Positions 36,029 through 45,727 of a stretch of 64,000 nt of DNA are shown one piece after another; the stretch's first letter is position 1; each line of letters opens with the position of its first letter. The DNA is taken from positions 768,001-832,000 of the forward strand of contig CBDBCY010000004.1 of the NCBI GenBank assembly GCA_965203555.1. Direction: 5' to 3'. The translations under genes were made by a program, and so were the position numbers. The notes beneath the pieces are model-generated. The model made no database searches. It was not told the origin of the DNA and saw nothing but the letters and a program-made list of their open reading frames with translations. Source of the DNA: Acidimicrobiia bacterium (GTDB lineage Bacteria > Actinomycetota > Acidimicrobiia > Spongiisociales > ZC4RG35).

Positions 36029-38077
36029 TTGTCACCCGATTCGATTCGCACCATTGCCCTGATCGGCCACGGAGGCAGTGGCAAGACTTCCCTGGCTGAA
36101 GCACTTCTCTACACCGCCGGGGTGACCACCCGACTCGGTTCGGTGGACCAGGGCACCACCATCTTGGACCATGAGCCGGAGGAGGAGGAACGCAGGCAAT
36201 CCTTGAACCTCTCGGTGGCCTCCTTCAAGTGGAACGGATGCAAGATCAACCTGATCGATACTCCCGGATACGCCGACTTCTCAGGCGATGCCCGCTCCGC
36301 CATCCGGGTGGCGGACTTGGCACTCTTCGTGGTTTCGGGGGTCGACGGCGTGGAAGTTCAAACCGAGCTGATGTGGAAGGTGGCCGCCGACGAAGGGACT
36401 CCGCGCGCGGTGTTCGTCACCAAGCTCGACCGGGACCGATCCTCCCTCGACCGCACTCTCGCCGAGTTGCGGGACGCCTTTGGAACCGGAATCGCTCCCC
36501 TGGTGATCAACGTGGGACAAGAAGCGAACCTGAGGGGAGTGGCCCGGGTCAGTTCAGGACAGGCAGCACTCTACGAGGAGGGCAACCCCCGGGGCGTCAT
36601 CGCCGCCGAGGCCCCCGAAGAAGTCGCTTCGGTCCTGGAAGAAGCCCACATGGAACTGGTGGAGTCGGTAGTCGAGACAGACGACGACCTGATGGACGCC
36701 TACTTCGAAGGGGAGGAGCCCAGCCAGGAAGTGATCGTCTCCGTCATCCGGGAAGCCATGTTGACCGGAGAACTCTTCCCGGTGCTGGCCGGTTCGTCCA
36801 GCCGACTGATCGGAATAGATGTCCTGGCCGACTTCCTCAAAGTTTTTGCGCCTACCCCGCTGGAGCGATCCGCCCCGCCGCTCGCGGAGGGCGAAATACA
36901 GATATCGGGAGACGGCGGCGCCACTGCCTACGTATTCAAGACGATCGGCGACCCGTACGTAGGGCGTATCTCCATTCTGAGAGTGTTCAGCGGATCTTTC
37001 AAAGCCGACGACCACCTGGAATTGGCCGGGGGGCCGACGGTCAGAGTGAGCAATCTGTTCTTCCTTCAGGGCCGCAACACCGATCCGGCCGCTGAGGTGT
37101 CCTGTGGAGATGTGGCGGCAGTGGCCAAGGTCGACAGGGCCACTACCGGCGCCACCCTGCGGTCGGTGGGGAAAACCGCGGTGGTGCTCCCCGCGGTCTA
37201 CCCGAAGCCGGTCATGGAATTGGCCATCTTCCCACGGTCCACGCAGGATGAGGAGAAGCTCTCCACCGCCCTGCAGCGGGCTGTCGAGGAAGATCCCACC
37301 CTAGCGGTTGAACGCCGGTCTGAAACCGGTGAAACCATCCTGGCAGGACTGGGCGACGTGCACCTGGACGTCACCTTGGCGCGCATCAAACGCAAGTACG
37401 GCGTGGAAGTGGAAACCGCCCTTCCCAGGATCGCCTATCGGGAAACGGTCAAGGGCCGGGCCGCGGCAGAGGGAAAGCACAAGAAACAGACCGGGGGACG
37501 CGGGCAATTCGGCGTGGCTTTCGTGCGTTTTGCTCCCAAGCCCCAGGGCGAAGGCTACGAGTTCATCGACTCCATCAAGGGAGGCGCCATCCCCCGCCAG
37601 TACATTCCGGCGGTCGACAAGGGGATCAGGGAGGCCTTCGCCCGCGGGATTCTGGCCGGTTTTCCGGTCATCGACGTGTCGGCCGAGGTCTACGACGGCA
37701 AGTATCATTCCGTCGACTCCGATGAGTTGTCTTTCCGCATGGCGGGAATCGCCGCCGTACGTTCTGCCGGGTCGGACCTGCGACCGGTCCTGCTGGAGCC
37801 CATCACCCGTCTATCGGTCAAAGTGCCCGAGGAGTACACCGGAGACGTAATAGGTGACATAAACGCAAAACGGGGCCGGGTGTACGGCATGGAGACGGAT
37901 GGATCGCTTCGGGTTATTTCCGCAGAGGTCCCCATGGCGGAGATCCAACGGTACGCGGTCGACCTTCGCTCGATGACCAGTGGACGCGGTACCTTCGAGG
38001 TGGCCTTCGACCACTATTCGGAGATTCCACATCAGGAAGCCCAGAAAGTGATCAGCGCATCCCGGAAGGAAGACTGA
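36029..38077 (+). CDS. Elongation factor G-like protein (EF-G2)
   Basis: GHGGSGKT, DTPG, TKLD, KQTGGRGQF and HSVDSDE motifs; stands alone, outside the str operon. Confidence 0.92.
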   Translation: MSPDSIRTIALIGHGGSGKTSLAEALLYTAGVTTRLGSVDQGTTILDHEPEEEERRQSLNLSVASFKWNGCKINLIDTPGYADFSGDARSAIRVADLALFVVSGVDGVEVQTELMWKVAADEGTPRAVFVTKLDRDRSSLDRTLAELRDAFGTGIAPLVINVGQEANLRGVARVSSGQAALYEEGNPRGVIAAEAPEEVASVLEEAHMELVESVVETDDDLMDAYFEGEEPSQEVIVSVIREAMLTGELFPVLAGSSSRLIGIDVLADFLKVFAPTPLERSAPPLAEGEIQISGDGGATAYVFKTIGDPYVGRISILRVFSGSFKADDHLELAGGPTVRVSNLFFLQGRNTDPAAEVSCGDVAAVAKVDRATTGATLRSVGKTAVVLPAVYPKPVMELAIFPRSTQDEEKLSTALQRAVEEDPTLAVERRSETGETILAGLGDVHLDVTLARIKRKYGVEVETALPRIAYRETVKGRAAAEGKHKKQTGGRGQFGVAFVRFAPKPQGEGYEFIDSIKGGAIPRQYIPAVDKGIREAFARGILAGFPVIDVSAEVYDGKYHSVDSDELSFRMAGIAAVRSAGSDLRPVLLEPITRLSVKVPEEYTGDVIGDINAKRGRVYGMETDGSLRVISAEVPMAEIQRYAVDLRSMTSGRGTFEVAFDHYSEIPHQEAQKVISASRKED

Positions 38078-39408
38078 TGCCTACCGAGGACGGCGCCCGA
38101 CTACATTACCGAGGGCAGGAATTGGGACTACCCCTGGTGGCGCCGACCGTGGGAGACTGGGGCATTGACATCTCCCGGCTGAGGGCCGACTTGGGACTGA
38201 TCACCGTGGACCGGGGATTCGGCAACACCTCGCAGAACCCCAGTTCGGTCAGCTTCGTCAACGGCGAACAGGGAACCTTGAGCTACCGGGGCTACCCGAT
38301 CGAAGAGTTGGCCGGCCGGGTTGGTTTCTTGGAGGTGGCCTGGCTGCTCCTGTACGAGGACCTTCCCTCTCCCTCCCAACTCGACCGTTTCGAGGAGGAA
38401 ATCCGGGACTTCTCCGACGTGGGCGATTACATGCAGAGCTTCCTGGAGGCCTTCCCGGAAGAGAGCACTCCCATGGCTACCCTGGCCGCCGGGGTGCTCA
38501 GCATGGTAGGCCGCCATCCCGAGGCCTCCCAGACCAGCAAGCCCGAAATGTGGGAGAGAGCCACCCGCATTCTCCTCGCCGAAATGCCGGTGCTGGCCGC
38601 CCTGATAAACCGCCGATGCCTGGGACTGGACCCCATCGAGATAAGAACCGATCTGCCCTACACCGCTCGGTTCTATCACACCGCAGTGGCTGAGTCGGAG
38701 TCATCTCCTGCTCCCGATCCGCAACGCCTTGCCGTGCTGGAGATGCTGGAGCTTCTCCATAGCGACCACGGACAGAACTGCTCGTCCTCGGCGGTGCAGT
38801 TGGTCGGATCGGGCCGGGCCAGCATCTTCGCCTCGATAGCAGCGGGGATAAACGCCCTGTCGGGTCCTCTCCACGGCGGCGCCAACCAGAGGGTCCTGGG
38901 AATGCTGCAGGAGATCCAGATGGAAGGAGGAGACGTGAGAAAGGCCCTGGATCGGGCAAAGGACCGTTCCGACCCGTTCCGACTCATGGGCTTTGGTCAC
39001 CGGGTATACCGAAACTACGACCCGAGAGCAAGAATCATCAAAGACGCGGCCGCCGAGGTGCTGGCCGGTCTGGGCACGGACGATCCCCTCCTGCAGTTGG
39101 CCCAGGAACTGGAGAATGCGGCATTGGCGGACGAGTACTTCGTAAAGCGCAAGCTTTATCCCAACGTCGACTTCTACTCCGGTTTTCTGTATCGGGCGCT
39201 GGGCTTTCCCACCCAAATGTTCACCGTGCTTTTTGCAATAGGCCGGTTGCCGGGTTGGCTTTCCCACTGGCGGGAGATGGCTTCCGACCCCAAGAGCCGC
39301 ATTTTCCGCCCCCGCCAGGTCTATGTGGGCCGAACCGAACGGAAACTGGAGGACCGCGGCGCAACGACCCGATCTCAGACGGCGGGCGCCTCCAGTTCCT
39401 CTATGTAA
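38077..39408 (+). CDS. gltA: Citrate synthase
   Basis: YRGYPIEEL, HSDHGQNCS, GPLHGGAN, LMGFGHRVY and YPNVDFYSG motifs. Confidence 0.95.
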   Translation: MPTEDGARLHYRGQELGLPLVAPTVGDWGIDISRLRADLGLITVDRGFGNTSQNPSSVSFVNGEQGTLSYRGYPIEELAGRVGFLEVAWLLLYEDLPSPSQLDRFEEEIRDFSDVGDYMQSFLEAFPEESTPMATLAAGVLSMVGRHPEASQTSKPEMWERATRILLAEMPVLAALINRRCLGLDPIEIRTDLPYTARFYHTAVAESESSPAPDPQRLAVLEMLELLHSDHGQNCSSSAVQLVGSGRASIFASIAAGINALSGPLHGGANQRVLGMLQEIQMEGGDVRKALDRAKDRSDPFRLMGFGHRVYRNYDPRARIIKDAAAEVLAGLGTDDPLLQLAQELENAALADEYFVKRKLYPNVDFYSGFLYRALGFPTQMFTVLFAIGRLPGWLSHWREMASDPKSRIFRPRQVYVGRTERKLEDRGATTRSQTAGASSSSM

Positions 39409-39866
39409 ACCTCTGAGCACAGTTCACCGTCAGCCCCGTCAATCTCCACCAGGGCACGGCGCAGGGGCGGGCTTTCCGCAGAGTACAGGATCACCTGCCA
39501 GCGGGGCCGAGATCTGATCCCGGTAAAGCTGACCGCCACGGAGGCGTGCCCCACCGCAAACGGCACCTCGCCCGCCGCCACTCTCAAAGCCCCGGCCTGA
39601 TCGAGGGAGAGGGGCCACGACGCCCACCAGTGGTAGGCGGCCATCCCCGTCAACAGGACGACAGAGATCCACAGGCCCGGGGTGGAAAACGCCAATCCTC
39701 CCAAGACGACGGCCGTTCCCAGGTAAACCCACCCGGCCCAACTACGCCGGCGTGGATCCGGAAAGCGGTACGGCCCCACGGCCGCGGCGTCCAAATCGTC
39801 GGGGACCGCCTCGGCCCGGGCCAGGTCGTCCGGGATCACTATCCCGTCTTGTCCCTTGGCGCTCAT
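39375..39866 (-). CDS. Hypothetical membrane protein
   Basis: Two hydrophobic helices; starts 7 nt after the thrS stop on the same strand. Confidence 0.7.
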   Translation of the reverse strand: MSAKGQDGIVIPDDLARAEAVPDDLDAAAVGPYRFPDPRRRSWAGWVYLGTAVVLGGLAFSTPGLWISVVLLTGMAAYHWWASWPLSLDQAGALRVAAGEVPFAVGHASVAVSFTGIRSRPRWQVILYSAESPPLRRALVEIDGADGELCSEVYIEELEAPAV

Positions 39867-39872
39867 CGGAGA

Positions 39873-42764
39873 TCAGTCAAACGATCCGCTGGGAGGAAGA
39901 GCTTCCTCGGCCAGTGTCGCGGCGATCTCGACCAGGGGCACAGCTCTTTTCTCTTGCTTTTCTCCGAAGCGGCGCAGTCCCACGGTGTTGTTACTGACAT
40001 CCTGATCGCCCACCACCATCACAACCGGGTGTTTGGCGGTCATTGCTCTCCGTATCTTCTCCCCCAGACGATCCGACGAAGCATCCACCCTGACCCGCAA
40101 ACCCATTGACTGCAGCTTGTCCGCCACCTGTCGCGCATAGTCGAGGTGACGGTCGGCCACCGGGTTGACCGTGACTTGGATCGGCGCCAGCCACATGGGG
40201 AATGCTCCCGCATAGTGTTCCACCAGCACCCCGAAGAACCTTTCTATCGATCCCGCCTTGGCGCTGTGAATCATCACCGGTCTTCGAAAGACATTGTCGG
40301 CGCCGGCGTATTCGAGACCGAAGTTGTCGGGAAGGGCAAAGTCAACCTGGATGGTGGACATCTGCCAGCGTCTCCCGATGGCGTCCCTGACGTGAACGTC
40401 GATCTTGGGCCCGTAGAACGCTCCCTCGCCCTCTGCCACCCGGTGGGATACTTCTCCCTTCTGCAGAGACTCCAGGAGGGCCTCCTCGGCTACCTCCCAC
40501 AACTGGGGATCTCCCACGAATTTGTCTGGTCGGGTGGAGAGATCCGCCTCGAATTCGGAAAACCCGAAGTCCTGCAACCAGCTGAGAACGAAGAGCAGAT
40601 GCATGTCCAATTCAGCCGGCAACTGTTGACGGGTACAGAAGGTGTGGGAGTCGTCCTGGGTGAAACCTCGGGCACGCAACGCACCGTGAATCACTCCCGA
40701 ACGTTCATAGCGATAAACCCCGCCCAATTCCGACAGACGGATCGGCAGGTCCCGGTAGGAGCGACCCCGGCTGCGGTAGATCAGCACATGAAACGGGCAG
40801 TTCATGGGCTTTACCAGGTATTCATCACCGCCGTCCAGAACCATCGGCGGATACATGTTCTCTGAATAGAAGTCAAGGTGACCTGAGGTTTCCCAAAGTT
40901 GGCTACGAGCCAAGTGGGGAGAGAAAACAAACTCAAACCCGAAGCGTTGATGGAGTTGGCGGCTGTGATCTTCCATCAACTTCCTTACCATCCCCCCCTT
41001 GGAATGCCATACCATTAGTCCCGCCCCCAACTGCGGGGGGAAGGAAAACAAGTCCAATGCGGGTCCCAATCTGCGGTGATCCCGTCGCTCGGCTTCTTCC
41101 AGACGGTGCAGATACTCCTTCAAGGCGCGGGGGGACTCCCAAGCCGTTCCATAGATTCTCTGCAATTGCGGTCTGTTCTCATCGCCCCTCCAATAGGCGC
41201 CGGAAGACCGAAGCAGTTTTACAGCTTTGAGTCTTCCAGTGGAAGGTACATGCGGACCGAGACACAAATCAACGAAACCGTCATTTGAGTAAACAGTTAC
41301 TTCCTCTCCTTCCGCCACTTCAGACGAATCGACCGACTCGATGATCTCCAATTTGAAGGGATGTGACCGGAACACTTCCAACGCCTCGGCCCGGCTCATC
41401 GATCTGCGTATGAAAGGCTGATCAGCAGCAATCAACTGATCCATTCTCTCTTCCAGGCGGGACAGGTCTTCGGGCGAGAAAGGCTGATCGATCCCGAAGT
41501 CGTAATAGAAGCCGTCTTCAATGGGAGGGCCGATCGCAAAGGTGGATCCGGGGAAGAGGTCCAGCACCGCCTGAGCGAGCACATGAGCAGCCGAGTGCCG
41601 CATTACGCGCCGACCTTCTTCGGTCCGGTCAGTGACTATCCGAAGTTTTCCGGACCTTCGAAGAGGTCGACCGAGATCCATCAACTCGCCATCAAGCTCG
41701 ACAGCCACTGCCGCTCTGGCCAGCCCAGGCCCGATCCGGCGGGCCAACTCCTGGCCCGTGATACCAGGTTCGCCCGTCCGGAGACTTCCGTCGGGCAATT
41801 CCCACCGAAGCGTCACGTCTCTTTCCTCAACTCGACGTAAAAGGGTACCCGCTCCCGCCGAACTCGAACGCTCATCCAGAGTCAGCAGATAGGAATGGTC
41901 GCTGTGATGATGCCGAAATCCCATGGACCGATACATATTCAGGGCAGCCACATTCCCAGCGTCCACATAGAGAACGCAAGCTCGGGCGTGATGGTAGGTA
42001 TGCATGTGTCTGATGCCCTCCAACAGCAACGCCTTACCCAGACCCATCCGCTGGTATCCCGGCACCACGCCGATCACATAAATCTCCCCGGCTCGGGGAG
42101 AAGGCACCTTGGTCCAACAGAATCCGGCCAGCACCTCGCCGTCCCAGGCCATTCTCAAACCCTCCGAGGAGAACCAGGGACGCCTCCGGCGGCGGTCCAG
42201 ATCATTCAACCTCCAATTCCCGTTCTCCGGGTGGCCGGAAAAGACCCGGTTGTTCCCCTCCAACCAGGCCTCCTCGTCAATCCCTTCCCGAAAACCCCTC
42301 ACCTCTATACCAGGAGGAAACCGCGGTAATGCGACCAGGGGAAGGGGGGCACGCATGTGATGCAACTCGCGTTCCAGGCCAAAGCCTGCCCGCTCAGCGG
42401 CGTCTGCCACCTGTGGAATATAAGCCCACAGGCGGATCCCCGACCCACCTCGGATCTTCACTTCGCGTCGCACGTTCTCCAAGAGTTCGTTAAGGACCGA
42501 CTCCATCCGGTAGTCGGGATGCACCGCCGCTTCCACAGTCCACAATCCCTGGTCTTCCTCAATGAAAGCCAGATACGACACAATTCCGCCGTCACCCTCC
42601 GCCACCAGCCCTGCAGTCTCGGCGCCCATGTCGACCGGAGGCTCCACCAGATAGAAGTGCTTTCGCTCTCCCAAAGCCGGGTGGAGATCGTGTTCCTCAA
42701 TGTCGGCAATCAACTGGCGCAGAGCATCAAGATCGGTCTGCAGATCTACGCTACGCAGGTTCAA
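39873..42764 (-). CDS. thrS: Threonyl-tRNA synthetase (39873..41816) fused in frame to an N-terminal MshD-like tandem GNAT domain (about 41880..42764)
   Basis: ThrRS motifs: RHSAAHVLAQA, DLCLGPH, RIYGTAW, KPMNCPFH, FTQDDSH, AFYGPKID. MshD-like motifs: HPENGNW, GFCWTKV, GEIYVIGV, GLGKAL, LYVDAGN. Confidence 0.93.
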   Translation of the reverse strand: MNLRSVDLQTDLDALRQLIADIEEHDLHPALGERKHFYLVEPPVDMGAETAGLVAEGDGGIVSYLAFIEEDQGLWTVEAAVHPDYRMESVLNELLENVRREVKIRGGSGIRLWAYIPQVADAAERAGFGLERELHHMRAPLPLVALPRFPPGIEVRGFREGIDEEAWLEGNNRVFSGHPENGNWRLNDLDRRRRRPWFSSEGLRMAWDGEVLAGFCWTKVPSPRAGEIYVIGVVPGYQRMGLGKALLLEGIRHMHTYHHARACVLYVDAGNVAALNMYRSMGFRHHHSDHSYLLTLDERSSSAGAGTLLRRVEERDVTLRWELPDGSLRTGEPGITGQELARRIGPGLARAAVAVELDGELMDLGRPLRRSGKLRIVTDRTEEGRRVMRHSAAHVLAQAVLDLFPGSTFAIGPPIEDGFYYDFGIDQPFSPEDLSRLEERMDQLIAADQPFIRRSMSRAEALEVFRSHPFKLEIIESVDSSEVAEGEEVTVYSNDGFVDLCLGPHVPSTGRLKAVKLLRSSGAYWRGDENRPQLQRIYGTAWESPRALKEYLHRLEEAERRDHRRLGPALDLFSFPPQLGAGLMVWHSKGGMVRKLMEDHSRQLHQRFGFEFVFSPHLARSQLWETSGHLDFYSENMYPPMVLDGGDEYLVKPMNCPFHVLIYRSRGRSYRDLPIRLSELGGVYRYERSGVIHGALRARGFTQDDSHTFCTRQQLPAELDMHLLFVLSWLQDFGFSEFEADLSTRPDKFVGDPQLWEVAEEALLESLQKGEVSHRVAEGEGAFYGPKIDVHVRDAIGRRWQMSTIQVDFALPDNFGLEYAGADNVFRRPVMIHSAKAGSIERFFGVLVEHYAGAFPMWLAPIQVTVNPVADRHLDYARQVADKLQSMGLRVRVDASSDRLGEKIRRAMTAKHPVVMVVGDQDVSNNTVGLRRFGEKQEKRAVPLVEIAATLAEEALPPSGSFD

Positions 42765-42866
42765 GAGTCATGACCTCCTTTGAATGGACCAATTGAATGG
42801 ACCGAGCGCGGATTGAGCAGACCCTCCAATGGCAAACCCTGAACCATTCCGATCAGCAGGAAAAAG

Positions 42867-42938
42867 TGGGCGCTACTGGGATCGAACCAGTGACCTCTGC
42901 CGTGTGAAGGCAGCGCTCTCCCGCTGAGCTAAGCGCCC
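42867..42938 (-). tRNA. tRNA-Val (CAC)
   Basis: GGGCGCTTAGCTCAGCGGGAGAGCG-CTGCC TTCACAC GGCAG-...GGTTCGATCCCAGTAGCGCCCA; CCA not encoded. Confidence 0.96.
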
Positions 42939-42973
42939 GCTTAAACAGAGAATGGTACCTTGATTACATTCCC

Positions 42974-43369
42974 TCAGGAACGGGTTCGGGCGATACCACT
43001 CTTGCTGAGCACGGCAGCAGCCACACCCATCTCCCGCCATGCCTTATAGGAAATACCCTTACGAGTGGAGTAAGACTTGGCCGCATTGACAAACTCTGCC
43101 TCCAGCGCATTGATATCACCCGGATCTTCCGCGCGACGTTTCTCAGCGTCGATCCGTTGTTGGATCAAGGCAAGTCTCTGTAACTGATCCGACTCGTTCT
43201 CAAGTTTCTCTTGCACTTCTTCCAGTTCCTTTTGAGGCGACTTCCGACGTCCTCGACGCCCTGCCGAGGAGTGCAGGGCCTCCAAATATGCACGCACAGC
43301 CTTCGTCTGGGCTCGGGCTGCGGCTCTCGCTGCCCGCACCTCTGGAGAAAGATTTCTCCGTTTATCCAT
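42974..43369 (-). CDS. Basic, helical/coiled-coil hypothetical protein
   Basis: Arg/Lys-rich with a central heptad-like region; GGAGAG upstream of the ATG at 43369. Confidence 0.75.
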   Translation of the reverse strand: MDKRRNLSPEVRAARAAARAQTKAVRAYLEALHSSAGRRGRRKSPQKELEEVQEKLENESDQLQRLALIQQRIDAEKRRAEDPGDINALEAEFVNAAKSYSTRKGISYKAWREMGVAAAVLSKSGIARTRS

Positions 43370-43722
43370 CCACTCTCCCCTTTCGTTGCGAAATTGAGAA
43401 ACAATAGTAGGTGCCTTGACAATCTGCTGCAAACCGTTGGATATTGTTTTACAAGAGCAAGTAATAACCTGTGATCCACTATCTAGAGAATCTCGGCGGA
43501 GTTCTTCTTCCTTTTATGGATAAGTTTCAGAAACCATCTAAGGTTTCCCAACCCTCGCCTTCGGAAAGCGGCAACCAAGTAACTTAGTGCGACACCAATA
43601 CTCCAGTCGACACAAAGGCTGGTCCCAAGAATGCGGTGGTGCCGAGCGATGCCCGCTAGGACTTGACCTAACGAGGCCGGCGCGTCACCCGGTTCGTGGC
43701 ATTACCGGGCGACAAGAAAGAG

Positions 43723-43794
43723 TGGGCCCTAGTGGAATTGAACCACTGACCTCTTCCGTGTCAAGGAAGCGCTCTTCCTCTGAGCTAAGGGCCC
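43723..43794 (-). tRNA. tRNA-Val (GAC)
   Basis: GGGCCCTTAGCTCAG...CTTCC TTGACAC GGAAG...GGTTCAATTCCACTAGGGCCCA. Confidence 0.96.
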
Positions 43795-43815
43795 CATCGA
43801 AAACACCCTTTGCGG

Positions 43816-43887
43816 AGGCGACGTCCGGAATCGAACCGGAGTAACGGGTTTTGCAGACCCGTGCCTAATCCACTCGGCCACGTCGCC
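43816..43887 (-). tRNA. tRNA-Cys (GCA)
   Basis: GGCGACGTGGCCGAGTGG...ACGGGT CTGCAAA ACCCGT...GGTTCGATTCCGGACGTCGCCT. Confidence 0.96.
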
Positions 43888-43920
43888 GCGCTCTTCCACA
43901 TCAGCGGAAAAACCTGGAAG

Positions 43921-43993
43921 AGCGGAAGACGGGGCTTGAACCCGCGACCTCAACCTTGGCAAGGTTGCGCTCTACCAGCTGAGCTACTTCCGC
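43921..43993 (-). tRNA. tRNA-Gly (GCC)
   Basis: GCGGAAGTAGCTCAGCTGGTAGAGCG-CAACC TTGCCAA GGTTG-...GGTTCAAGCCCCGTCTTCCGCT. Confidence 0.96.
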
Positions 43994-44018
43994 GGCTTGC
44001 GACCATTATAACTCGCTT

Positions 44019-44456
44019 TTACCATCCGGTGGACCCGAATCCAGCTTCGCCGCGTTCGGATTCGCTCAAGCGGTCGACAGCAACCAGGCGGATCGCCGGC
44101 ACAGCCACCACCATTAACTGGGCGATACGGTCGCCTCGGGCAAACCTCACGGTCTCCTGCGACAGATTGACCAGAATCACGGACACTTCCCCCCGGTATC
44201 CAGAATCTATCAATCCCGGACTGTTCACAACCCCGATACCAAGCCGGTCAGCCAAACCGCTGCGAGGCAGCACCAATCCCGCATATCCGTCGGGAATGGC
44301 CAGGGCCAAACCAGTCGGCAGCTTTTTGCGTTGCCCGGGCGCCAATTCCACGTCAACAGCGGTGGGAAGATCAAAAGCTGCATCACCCTTATAGGCAATG
44401 GTGGGCAAAAAGGCTTCACCTTCTATTTTTAGGACGCTAATATTGAGGTTCTGCAT
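44019..44456 (-). CDS. dut: dUTP diphosphatase
   Basis: DAAFDL, PRSGLA, PGLIDSGYRGE, RIAQL and RGEAGFGSTG motifs. Confidence 0.96.
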   Translation of the reverse strand: MQNLNISVLKIEGEAFLPTIAYKGDAAFDLPTAVDVELAPGQRKKLPTGLALAIPDGYAGLVLPRSGLADRLGIGVVNSPGLIDSGYRGEVSVILVNLSQETVRFARGDRIAQLMVVAVPAIRLVAVDRLSESERGEAGFGSTGW

Positions 44457-44548
44457 AGTGGATGTCGGGCGGACACCACCCAAAGTAGGTGCTGTTGCCC
44501 AACCTTGATTTTAGAGTCCAGCGGAGCAAGCCGCGGGGCAAGCATCTC

Positions 44549-45727
44549 ATGCCCAGCAAGCAGCGACGGCCCCTCCCCCGCGTTCGGGAGCACAGCCGCA
44601 AGGCGAGTCACGGCCGTCACGCCACCCTTCTGAGTCCCGACCGCTCAGGACACACCGACCGTCAATCCGTCGATGACACACCCGACCCTAACCGTCTCAC
44701 CGTCAATGACGTCACCACCCCCGTGGGTCCCAAGGCGCCTCGTTCCTCCGGAGTAAACGGGAATGACACCTCCGCCAACGGAACGGCCGGCCATCCTCTC
44801 ACTGCCGCCCCTGACGTGGTTGTTCCCACCGCCAACGGCAGATACAAGGCAACCGAAGAAACCATCCATCACATGTGGCAGATATCGGAGTCCGCCTCCC
44901 CTCACCCCCGTCTACAGCCAAGCCCATTTCATTCGCTACGGCAGATAACCGCCCACCGGACACGTTCCGGCTTGTGGGCCACCCTGGGGTTGGTGGCTCT
45001 GGCGGCGGCAATCACCGTCGCTCTTGTGATGTCTGTAGGAGGTCCGGGACAGGACAACCCCGACGTACGCGCTGCGGTTGGGGACGCCGCCGCCGTAGCC
45101 GCCGGATCCGTGGAAGATAGCCTTGCAACTCTCGAATCCCTTCGAGCCGGAGATTCATTCACGCCAGATCTGGTTTCCTCCATCTCCGCCCTGGGAGATG
45201 CTTCCCGCAATCTGGTGGAGTCGGCTGCGGCCCTCCCCACCGATGATTCCTCTTTGGCCGAGACTCGCATGTTGGCCACCGCCCTTGCCGGTCGCGCCTC
45301 ACGTCTGGGTGAAACCTTTGGAGCGGCTTTCTCGTATCGAGGGCAATTGGGACCGAATCTGACTTTCCCCGATTTGAACGCTCCACTGGAGATCTCCAAC
45401 CTCTCCGAGAACACCACGCTCTTGACAGACTGGCAATTCCGCCTTGAACAGGCGGCCTCCTCTCAGCCCGGCCAACCGCGGCTCTTACAAAACCAGCAGG
45501 CCCTCGAAGCAACATTGCCATACATAGCGGTGCATCGCCAGGCCTACTCCGACGCGGTGGGCAACGGTCAGTTGGAACAGGCCCAAGCAGCCCTGTTACA
45601 AATAGCCTCCCTGGTGTCGGCCATCGAACAGGACTTCGACCGGGCTTACCTTGAGATCGCCGAGATCGCCGAAGCAGAAATAGCCTCCTTGACCGCCGAC
45701 CTTCAGAATCTGATGACAGGGATGTGA
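44549..45727 (+). CDS. Hypothetical single-pass membrane protein
   Basis: Low-complexity N-terminus, one TM helix (LWATLGLVALAAAITVALV) and a long Ala/Leu-rich helical C-terminus; start uncertain. Confidence 0.7.
   Translation: MPSKQRRPLPRVREHSRKASHGRHATLLSPDRSGHTDRQSVDDTPDPNRLTVNDVTTPVGPKAPRSSGVNGNDTSANGTAGHPLTAAPDVVVPTANGRYKATEETIHHMWQISESASPHPRLQPSPFHSLRQITAHRTRSGLWATLGLVALAAAITVALVMSVGGPGQDNPDVRAAVGDAAAVAAGSVEDSLATLESLRAGDSFTPDLVSSISALGDASRNLVESAAALPTDDSSLAETRMLATALAGRASRLGETFGAAFSYRGQLGPNLTFPDLNAPLEISNLSENTTLLTDWQFRLEQAASSQPGQPRLLQNQQALEATLPYIAVHRQAYSDAVGNGQLEQAQAALLQIASLVSAIEQDFDRAYLEIAEIAEAEIASLTADLQNLMTGM

Follow-up and report, generated by a model that had tools for sequence, protein, structure and literature searches.

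In the genome of an uncultured species of the Acidimicrobiia, a single open reading frame (ORF) of 963 codons joins a tandem-GNAT module of the mycothiol synthase (MshD) family to a complete threonyl-tRNA synthetase (ThrRS). The ORF lies on the minus strand of the window, by which we mean the whole stretch of 64,000 nucleotides (nt) analyzed here (G000:C4:768001-832000), taken from a genome, G000, of 3.42 Mb that is assembled in 4 contigs and is 95% complete. We consider it probable, with a chance of roughly three in four, that this ORF is a young, species-specific stop-loss (read-through) fusion of two neighboring genes, mshD-like and thrS. The domain combination is a new one, formed by an ordinary mechanism. 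The exact 963-residue protein was already recorded in public collections; no described MshD-ThrRS fusion was found in the literature searched, supplementary files aside, in agreement with the initial annotation of this DNA, which knew of none.

Results

The initial annotation had described an uninterrupted 963-residue ORF carrying MshD-like motifs and composed of about 295 residues of two-GNAT domain, a linker of about 20 residues, and a complete ThrRS of about 647 residues. Our analysis bore out this description. The motifs GHPENGNW, GFCWTKV, GEIYVIGV, and LYVDAGN are all present in the translation, and the GNAT module (residues 1-295) is separated by a 21-residue linker from a ThrRS of 647 residues (Table 1). 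Residues 11-292 match the NCBIfam equivalog model TIGR03448 (mycothiol_MshD) over profile positions 10-294 of 294 with 198.4 bits against a cut-off of 163.1, and a second scoring of the module against the same model and cut-off gave 202.1 bits. Alignment of its N terminus to the mshD-like genes of congeners begins at residue 1-2. In Pfam, Acetyltransf_1 covers residues 189-283, and all matches of the module are to Acetyltransf_1, 7, 10, and 9 and to FR47. An alignment of 50 related sequences showed E227, Y278, and G243 to be invariant, and these residues line up with catalytic motifs of Mycobacterium tuberculosis MshD; the catalytic Glu and Tyr of the latter are, in the numbering that we assume, E234 and Y294. 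The C-terminal GNAT retains the GLG of its QRMGLGKA stretch, presumably the acetyl-CoA-binding motif; G241 and L242 are almost invariant, and G243 is fully so.

The ThrRS module contains the full domain set of the enzyme (TGS, editing, class II core, and anticodon-binding domains), and residues 389-953 of the ORF match the NCBIfam equivalog model TIGR00418 (thrS) with 647.4 bits against a cut-off of 383.65. Numbered within the module, H74, H78, D183, C185, C340, H391, and H517 are invariant in an alignment of 40 ThrRS sequences; we take these positions to correspond to the Escherichia coli editing residues H73, H77, D180, and C182 and zinc ligands C334, H385, and H511. The fused ORF is the sole match in G000 both to thrS and to the MshD-like half, and its ThrRS is the housekeeping copy; another GNAT in the genome matches the MshD model weakly, with 35.7 bits. 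Because the catalytic residues are invariant and population variants are mostly synonymous in both halves, the GNAT and ThrRS modules both look functional. Prediction of a complex between the GNAT module and ThrRS returned a score of 0.00 in both runs against a mark of 0.32, and this result was counted neither for nor against binding. A composite alignment for folding the full-length protein was discarded, as it had set short GNAT rows against the ThrRS region at 12-18% identity to the query.

The origin of the fused frame was clarified by comparing gene order and stop codons in relatives. The genus consists of sponge- and coral-associated Acidimicrobiia, and in 15 of its 16 other species thrS is immediately preceded, on its own strand, by an mshD-like match; the sixteenth, G011, is too fragmented to judge and shows a thrS fragment only. 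Junctions were compared in 11 congeners and 8 genomes of other families, that is, in 19 genomes with both genes on one locus, including the unpublished G027. The mshD frame ends in a stop in all 19, and G000 alone runs on. Relative to the thrS start, this stop lies at -50 to +8 nt within the genus (the 11 congeners) and at -23 to -1281 nt outside it. The linker-encoding stretch of G000 corresponds to spacer or to variable GNAT tail in these relatives.

In both gene trees G000 and G008 are sisters (support of 98/97 for ThrRS and 99/96 for GNAT) and are nested among species that keep the stop. Because the sister G008 and the surrounding species have the stop, the fused state is, on these trees, derived on the terminal branch leading to G000. 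The junctions of the two sisters differ by several substitutions and a net length change of 1 nt: from GATG to GGTACC there are 23 intervening nt in G000 and 22 in G008, in a stretch where the exact alignment is ambiguous. The initial annotation had left a choice between a real bifunctional protein and a recent loss of a stop codon. Recent stop loss held up, given the stops in 19 of 19 other genomes and in the sister and the placement on a terminal branch, and a conserved bifunctional enzyme did not. The search of related genomes that it had suggested, for the same architecture or for adjacent genes, found adjacent separate genes in 15 of the 16 congeners and, among the matches listed, the fusion in G000 only. 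That all relatives have separate genes, an outcome it had itself named as counting against its proposal, speaks against an enzyme whose double function is conserved and selected.

Within the genus, the MshD-like protein evolves about two to four times faster than ThrRS, with terminal branches of 0.08-0.45 as compared with 0.04-0.10 changes per site. Farther out in the order, the MshD-like gene and thrS are parted in most other families by an opposite-strand gene for an APH-family phosphotransferase (PF01636); it is not there in the genus of the window. Because this gene separates them, the GNAT gene and thrS do not form one operon in those families. Tight coupling was seen in the genus of the window, and close adjacency also in family f10, at locus L038, and in the unpublished G027.

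The junction itself, which the initial annotation had singled out for a check for an indel or a stop, proved to be open in independent material. A search of sequencing runs found near-identical DNA in four studies, and Logan contigs of runs X2, X3, X4, and X6 were aligned to the window. Contigs from three separate studies bridged the junction with 0 gaps, no stop, and 6-8 substitutions each, namely a 10.5-kb contig of a coral metagenome (X3, record 9), a 2.7-kb contig of a sponge metagenome (X4, record 15), and an 830-nt contig of a marine metagenome (X6, record 19). These bridging contigs contain 12 distinct variant sites, of which 9 are synonymous, 3 change a residue (R224L, T256N, and T330M), and none creates a new stop. 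Two more 963-residue copies, P0018 and P0020, were found on other contigs of 71.6 and 20.8 kb; they show the variants T330M and R224L. These data confirmed that the 963-residue ORF is real in nature and not an assembly error; because it is real, a 963-residue polypeptide is to be expected whenever the GNAT start is used. In run X2, from the study of the probable source sample, contigs end at 41795 and resume at 41832 and so do not bridge the junction, a break that could reflect low depth or strain variation at 41796-41831. The RNA run X8, a coral metatranscriptome, contained only 0.07 of the sampled sequence words.

Large-scale searches addressed how unusual the fusion is. A word-index search through 5.8 billion proteins, restricted to GNAT-containing ones of 529-1686 residues, gave 6 matches, none of them with an aminoacyl-tRNA synthetase (aaRS) domain. 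When the GNAT half was compared exhaustively by HMMER with 1.84 billion representatives, no fusion was found in the best 150 of 3671 matches, the longest of these 150 being 650, 490, and 489 residues. Since both protein searches cover cluster representatives only, genomes of the order were screened directly. Among the matches listed for 201 genomes, G000 had the only stop-free joined match. A conserved fused architecture was therefore found neither in the 19 other genomes with both genes (0 of 19) nor among the matches listed for the 200 further genomes of the order.

Two sets of apparent fusions were rejected. In 7 of the 29 genomes of family f10, the matches listed included in-frame joined ones interrupted by 1-3 TGA codons. 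Recoding or fusion was dismissed in the 5 of these 7 genomes that were checked: the TGA is the stop of the GNAT gene, accompanied in two of them by a further stop in the spacer. At these loci (L102-L106, in G263, G178, G203, G258, and G151) the GNAT gene and thrS share a frame and lie 63-90 nt apart, with one or two TGA codons. Genome G030 had appeared to hold a second fusion, with both matches in an open frame of 1136 residues, and was set aside as its GNAT frame stops 438 nt before thrS. Other long proteins combine an MshD-like GNAT with unrelated modules, as in P0003 (919 residues; peptidase M3, PF01432) and P0004 (1603 residues; radical-SAM, PF04055), and P0063 (650 residues) has an MshD-like GNAT at its C terminus.

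We also found that the fused ORF appears to have kept the start signals of thrS. The codon for V317 aligns with an ATG, GTG, or TTG thrS start in every relative, and in the sister species G008 ThrRS is annotated as 647 residues from the GTG homologous to V317. Residue 6 counted from a V317 start aligns with residue 7 of Staphylococcus aureus ThrRS (1nyq), so that the N terminus matches that of a solved ThrRS within one residue. A GAGGA(G/A) sequence stands at the place of the internal Shine-Dalgarno-like site in 12 of 12 genomes of the genus; run X4 has GAGGAGAG there, a change that is synonymous in the fused frame. Upstream, the hexamer TACCCT fits the form TANNNT, which is the consensus of actinobacterial -10 boxes, and may be the -10 element of a thrS promoter that now lies inside the fused ORF. 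Our comparison thus suggests that within the fused frame thrS still has a translation start, and perhaps also a promoter, to itself. Because the spacer still has TACCCT, the GAGGA ribosome-binding site, and the GTG at which ThrRS starts in relatives, the canonical 647-residue ThrRS is probably still made alone as well.

The spacer of family f10 has TACGAT at a position comparable to that of TACCCT. A sigma-70 consensus scan of 39700-43100 returned 0 promoter-like sites, and the same region has 3 terminator-like sites, as compared with 3.4 expected by chance. An Rfam scan of 39500-44200 (E ≤ 1) detected four tRNAs and one chance match, and no known leader or riboswitch at the junction.

To place the GNAT half in its pathway, the other genes of mycothiol synthesis were considered. 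The sole gene of the cysteinyl-tRNA synthetase (CysRS)/MshC family in G000 is cysS (G000:C4:372921-374054), which scores 468.5 bits with TIGR00435 and 283 bits with the MshC model, whose cut-off is 485.1. Each of 15 congeners, several of which are assembled as a single contig, likewise has one CysRS/MshC-family gene, and no MshC was found in these or in G000. In a sample of the class, a distinct MshC-like gene of 401-446 bits is present in 42 of 101 genomes, three of which also show a lower-scoring CysRS in the same table; it was found in 0 of the 12 sampled genomes of the window's family and 0 of the 11 other genomes of the order. A 372-bit paralogue in the unpublished order genome G027 is a possible divergent MshC. 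BshC was searched for and not found. G000 has near full-length MshA-like (423.4 bits against a cut-off of 462.5) and MshB-like (206.8 bits against 224.35) genes, and G000 and 15 congeners keep an MshD-family gene above its curated cut-off with MshA- and MshB-like genes just under theirs. The available text of the literature on mycothiol in Acidimicrobiia yielded nothing on MshC or MshD for the class.

These results weaken the view that the N-terminal half works as a mycothiol synthase. The module passes the MshD model, whereas its pathway context does not fit, as no MshC was found in G000, in 15 congeners, or in 23 other order genomes of the class sample. Because MshC was not found in the genus or in the rest of the order sampled, the label "mycothiol synthase" for this half is doubtful, and it is best described as an MshD-family tandem GNAT of uncertain substrate. 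Nothing in the analysis shows a new joint function of the two modules, or the link between thiol/acetyl-CoA metabolism and translation that the initial annotation had envisaged.

The 163-residue ORF that follows thrS probably belongs to the same operon. At its 3' terminus it shares 34 nt with the end of a convergent citrate synthase gene (38077-39408, plus strand), and at locus L022 an ORF of 163 residues is likewise directly 3' of thrS. Beyond the tRNA-Val(CAC) gene upstream of the fused ORF are genes for tRNA-Val(GAC), tRNA-Cys(GCA), and tRNA-Gly(GCC) at 43722-43993 on the minus strand, and a dUTPase gene at 44019-44483 follows this tRNA cluster. The ORFs at 42974-43432 (minus, 152 residues) and 44489-45727 (plus, 412 residues) have no Pfam match at E ≤ 0.001.

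Table 1. Features of the fused ORF and its surroundings, and position of the mshD stop and of separating genes in relatives
Feature	Genome or locus	Position	Strand	Basis or remark
Whole fused ORF	window	39873..42764	minus	963 codons plus stop; TTG start at 42764-42762; ORF listing and translation
Ribosome-binding site AGGAGG	window	42774..42779	minus	9 nt 5' of the GNAT TTG start; read from sequence
MshD-family tandem-GNAT module, residues 1-295	window	41880..42764	minus	TIGR03448 match; similarity to M. tuberculosis MshD
Linker, residues 296-316, 21 residues, LDERSSSAGAGTLLRRVEERD	window	41817..41879	minus	junction DNA and congener alignment; former mshD tail plus intergenic spacer
TACCCT hexamer (candidate -10 element)	window	41842..41847	minus	invariant in 12/12 genomes of the genus, neighboring spacer columns vary; ~25 nt 5' of thrS start
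Internal Shine-Dalgarno-like site, GAGGAAAG	window	41821..41828	minus	GAGG core ends 8 nt 5' of the in-frame GTG
In-frame GTG (V317)	window	41814..41816	minus	homologous to the thrS start codon in all congeners
ThrRS module, 647 residues, complete	window	39876..41816	minus	TIGR00418, Pfam domains, alignments to solved structures
TGS domain	window	41631-41798	minus	Pfam, residues 323-378
tRNA_SAD (editing region)	window	41151-41300	minus	Pfam, residues 489-538
Class II core (tRNA-synt_2b)	window	40212-40832	minus	Pfam, residues 645-851
Anticodon-binding domain (HGTP_anticodon)	window	39906-40178	minus	Pfam, residues 863-953
tRNA-Val(CAC)	window	42866..42938	minus	immediately upstream of the fused ORF
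163-residue ORF	window	39375..39866	minus	6 nt 3' of the thrS stop; weak MauE-like match below cut-off
mshD stop relative to thrS start	G008	-50 nt
mshD stop relative to thrS start	G001, G014	-34 nt
mshD stop relative to thrS start	G007	-18 nt		in frame, TGA
mshD stop relative to thrS start	G016	-13 nt
mshD stop relative to thrS start	G006	-6 nt		in frame, TAG directly before ATG
mshD stop relative to thrS start	G004, G012, G002, G005	+1 nt		stop overlaps start codon
mshD stop relative to thrS start	G009	+8 nt
APH-family gene	L022	3665-4630	minus	PF01636
APH-family gene	L030	4151-5179	minus	PF01636

Discussion

We propose the following course of events. In the genus, an MshD-family tandem-GNAT gene stands directly upstream of the sole thrS and is tightly coupled to it, the spacer being 0-50 nt long and the mshD stop of several species overlapping the start of thrS. 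Substitutions and small insertions or deletions in this fast-changing spacer would then have removed all in-frame stops in the lineage of G000. A ribosome starting at the TTG at 42764 would continue through 21 spacer-encoded residues into ThrRS and yield a 963-residue polypeptide of ∼106 kDa (estimated at 110 Da per residue). As no stop ends the GNAT frame, every GNAT molecule would be tethered to ThrRS. With ThrRS also made alone, the cell would contain long ThrRS chains and short ones side by side. The GNAT and ThrRS modules most likely act independently, as beads on a string, and the fusion is probably neutral or nearly so and not a new enzyme.

Several observations weigh against this reading. 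Samples from three different studies contain the fused form, from which it follows that the fusion is at least tolerated and could be favored. The GNAT gene and thrS remain neighbors across the order, which would allow for a functional link. Because the known fused proteins cluster under an unfused 663-residue ThrRS representative, other fusions could be hidden in both protein searches, and 168 lower-ranked matches of the screen of 201 genomes lie outside those listed. The break in the X2 contigs falls exactly on the internal ribosome-binding site and GTG, and whether the junction is open in all strains cannot be judged from that run. Finally, the 963- and 647-residue products are both predicted from DNA.

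The stop-loss fusion was weighed against five other explanations. An open junction that is an assembly or sequencing artifact of G000, in an organism that really has two genes, now has very little chance of being correct: long-read assemblies can contain indel errors, G000 is a 4-contig assembly, and the X2 contigs break inside the junction, but contigs of three other studies span it without a gap or a stop, the two further 963-residue proteins come from separate contigs, and the difference from the sister junction consists of several substitutions with a net change of 1 nt instead of a single homopolymer slip. This explanation is already largely refuted. It is unlikely, though less so, that all ThrRS of the species is the 963-residue form, with the internal start unused and an N-terminally extended enzyme as the only ThrRS. 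Ribosomes that arrive from the GNAT start could cover the internal site, and N-terminal ThrRS extensions are tolerated in eukaryotes; the Shine-Dalgarno sequence and GTG are nevertheless intact and the same in kind as in the sister species, where they are the sole start, and the invariant TACCCT upstream of them suggests a separate thrS transcript.

Functional integration of the two halves is the theme of the remaining three. A selected bifunctional enzyme, whose GNAT acts on ThrRS, on Thr-tRNA(Thr), or on mischarged Ser-tRNA(Thr), or protects the oxidation-sensitive editing cysteine of ThrRS, strikes us as decidedly unlikely. It would draw on the conservation of the GNAT-thrS neighborhood across the order, on the tight stop/start coupling in the genus, on the persistence of the fused form with mostly synonymous variation in the samples of three studies, and on a lineage without MshC, so that the GNAT substrate may differ from cysteinyl-glucosaminyl-inositol (Cys-GlcN-Ins). 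Yet the fusion occurs in 1 of 17 species of the genus and is missing from its sister, an opposite-strand APH-family gene parts the two genes in most of the order's other families, the start signals of thrS inside the ORF are kept, and the GNAT half is nearest to acetyl-CoA-dependent MshD and not to the known aminoacyl-tRNA-acetylating toxins, which are single-domain GNATs. A looser partnership of the "Rosetta stone" kind, in which a GNAT that the order keeps without MshC in nearly all genomes examined has been re-purposed to work with ThrRS, has a slender chance. If it were true, the GNAT could acetylate ThrRS or (mis)charged tRNA(Thr), or could complete a conjugate of GlcN-inositol that contains threonine and is made with the help of ThrRS, and the conserved neighborhood and the physical fusion would both reflect the same link. 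Hardly credible is an aaRS-transferase in which ThrRS charges tRNA(Thr) and the tandem GNAT moves the threonine to a small-molecule or lipid acceptor, in the manner of the fusion of lysyl-tRNA synthetase (LysRS) to MprF known as LysX, or of ErdS, the ergosteryl-aspartate synthase. The N-terminal module is indeed a tandem GNAT, MshC was not found, and fusions of an aaRS to a GNAT-fold aminoacyl-tRNA transferase exist, according to the available text of PMC2922099 and PMC13219428. However, the Pfam matches are to the acetyl-CoA-type families Acetyltransf_1, 7, 10, and FR47 and not to MprF/Fem-type ones, the C-terminal GNAT keeps its GLG, the aaRS is the sole housekeeping ThrRS with no dedicated paralogue, and the fusion is limited to one species.

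Read as a recent loss of a stop codon, the fusion offers a natural snapshot of the origin of a multidomain protein, in which translationally coupled neighbors would have merged through drift in a short spacer; the former start codon, ribosome-binding site, and promoter-like element can still be read within the linker. Because the fused enzyme is the only ThrRS, the organism tolerates, in nature, 316 extra N-terminal residues on an essential synthetase. Annotators should not take the product for a designed "bifunctional mycothiol synthase/ThrRS". Perhaps more useful than the fusion is the finding that an order of marine-invertebrate-associated Acidimicrobiia has an MshD-family enzyme without a recognizable MshC in nearly all genomes examined. 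It raises the question of which low-molecular-weight thiol, if any, these bacteria make, and of what the GNAT acetylates.

Comparison with Known Systems

Single polypeptides that combine an aaRS with a GNAT-fold module are described for LysRS-MprF (LysX) and for the fungal fusion ErdS, of aspartyl-tRNA synthetase (AspRS) with an MprF-like module, in the available text of PMC2922099 and PMC13219428. In these proteins, an MprF/Fem-type module uses the aminoacyl-tRNA made by a dedicated aaRS paralogue (PMC2922099, PMC13219428). Such fusions are conserved within their lineages. The G000 fusion has neither an MprF/Fem-type module nor a paralogue; it has an acetyl-CoA MshD-type GNAT and a single housekeeping thrS and is found in one species.

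The best solved relative of the GNAT module is M. tuberculosis MshD (PDB 2c27, 1ozp, and 1p0h), which is a tandem GNAT too and aligns with residues 59-295 at an E-value of 2.3e-28. In this alignment GEIYVIGV of G000 corresponds to GEVYVLGV and MYRSMGF to TYQSLGF. The N-terminal GNAT differs, with RMESVL in G000 (residues 82-99, at about 42500-42520 of the window) in place of RRRGIG, a stretch that we take to be the acetyl-CoA-binding loop; because of this replacement, the first GNAT repeat may no longer bind acetyl-CoA. Compared with the M. tuberculosis enzyme, the G000 module is only modestly above the model cut-off, has no MshC partner that was found, and is tethered to ThrRS without a stop of its own. 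The ThrRS half has the same full architecture as the bacterial enzymes of S. aureus (1nyq, E-value of 1.2e-173) and E. coli (1qf6, E-value of 9.8e-161) and aligns with them nearly end to end; it differs in the 316-residue N-terminal extension that it would carry when translated from the upstream start.

The closest counterpart is the separate but translationally coupled mshD-like/thrS pair of the genus, as in G008, G004, G012, G002, and G005, which has the same order and strand, the same thrS ribosome-binding site and start position, and the same TACCCT. Protein identity of the fused ORF to G008 is 92% in ThrRS and 78% in the GNAT. The congener pairs end the GNAT gene with a stop at -50 to +8 nt, whereas in G000, which has no stop there, the two genes read as one ORF.

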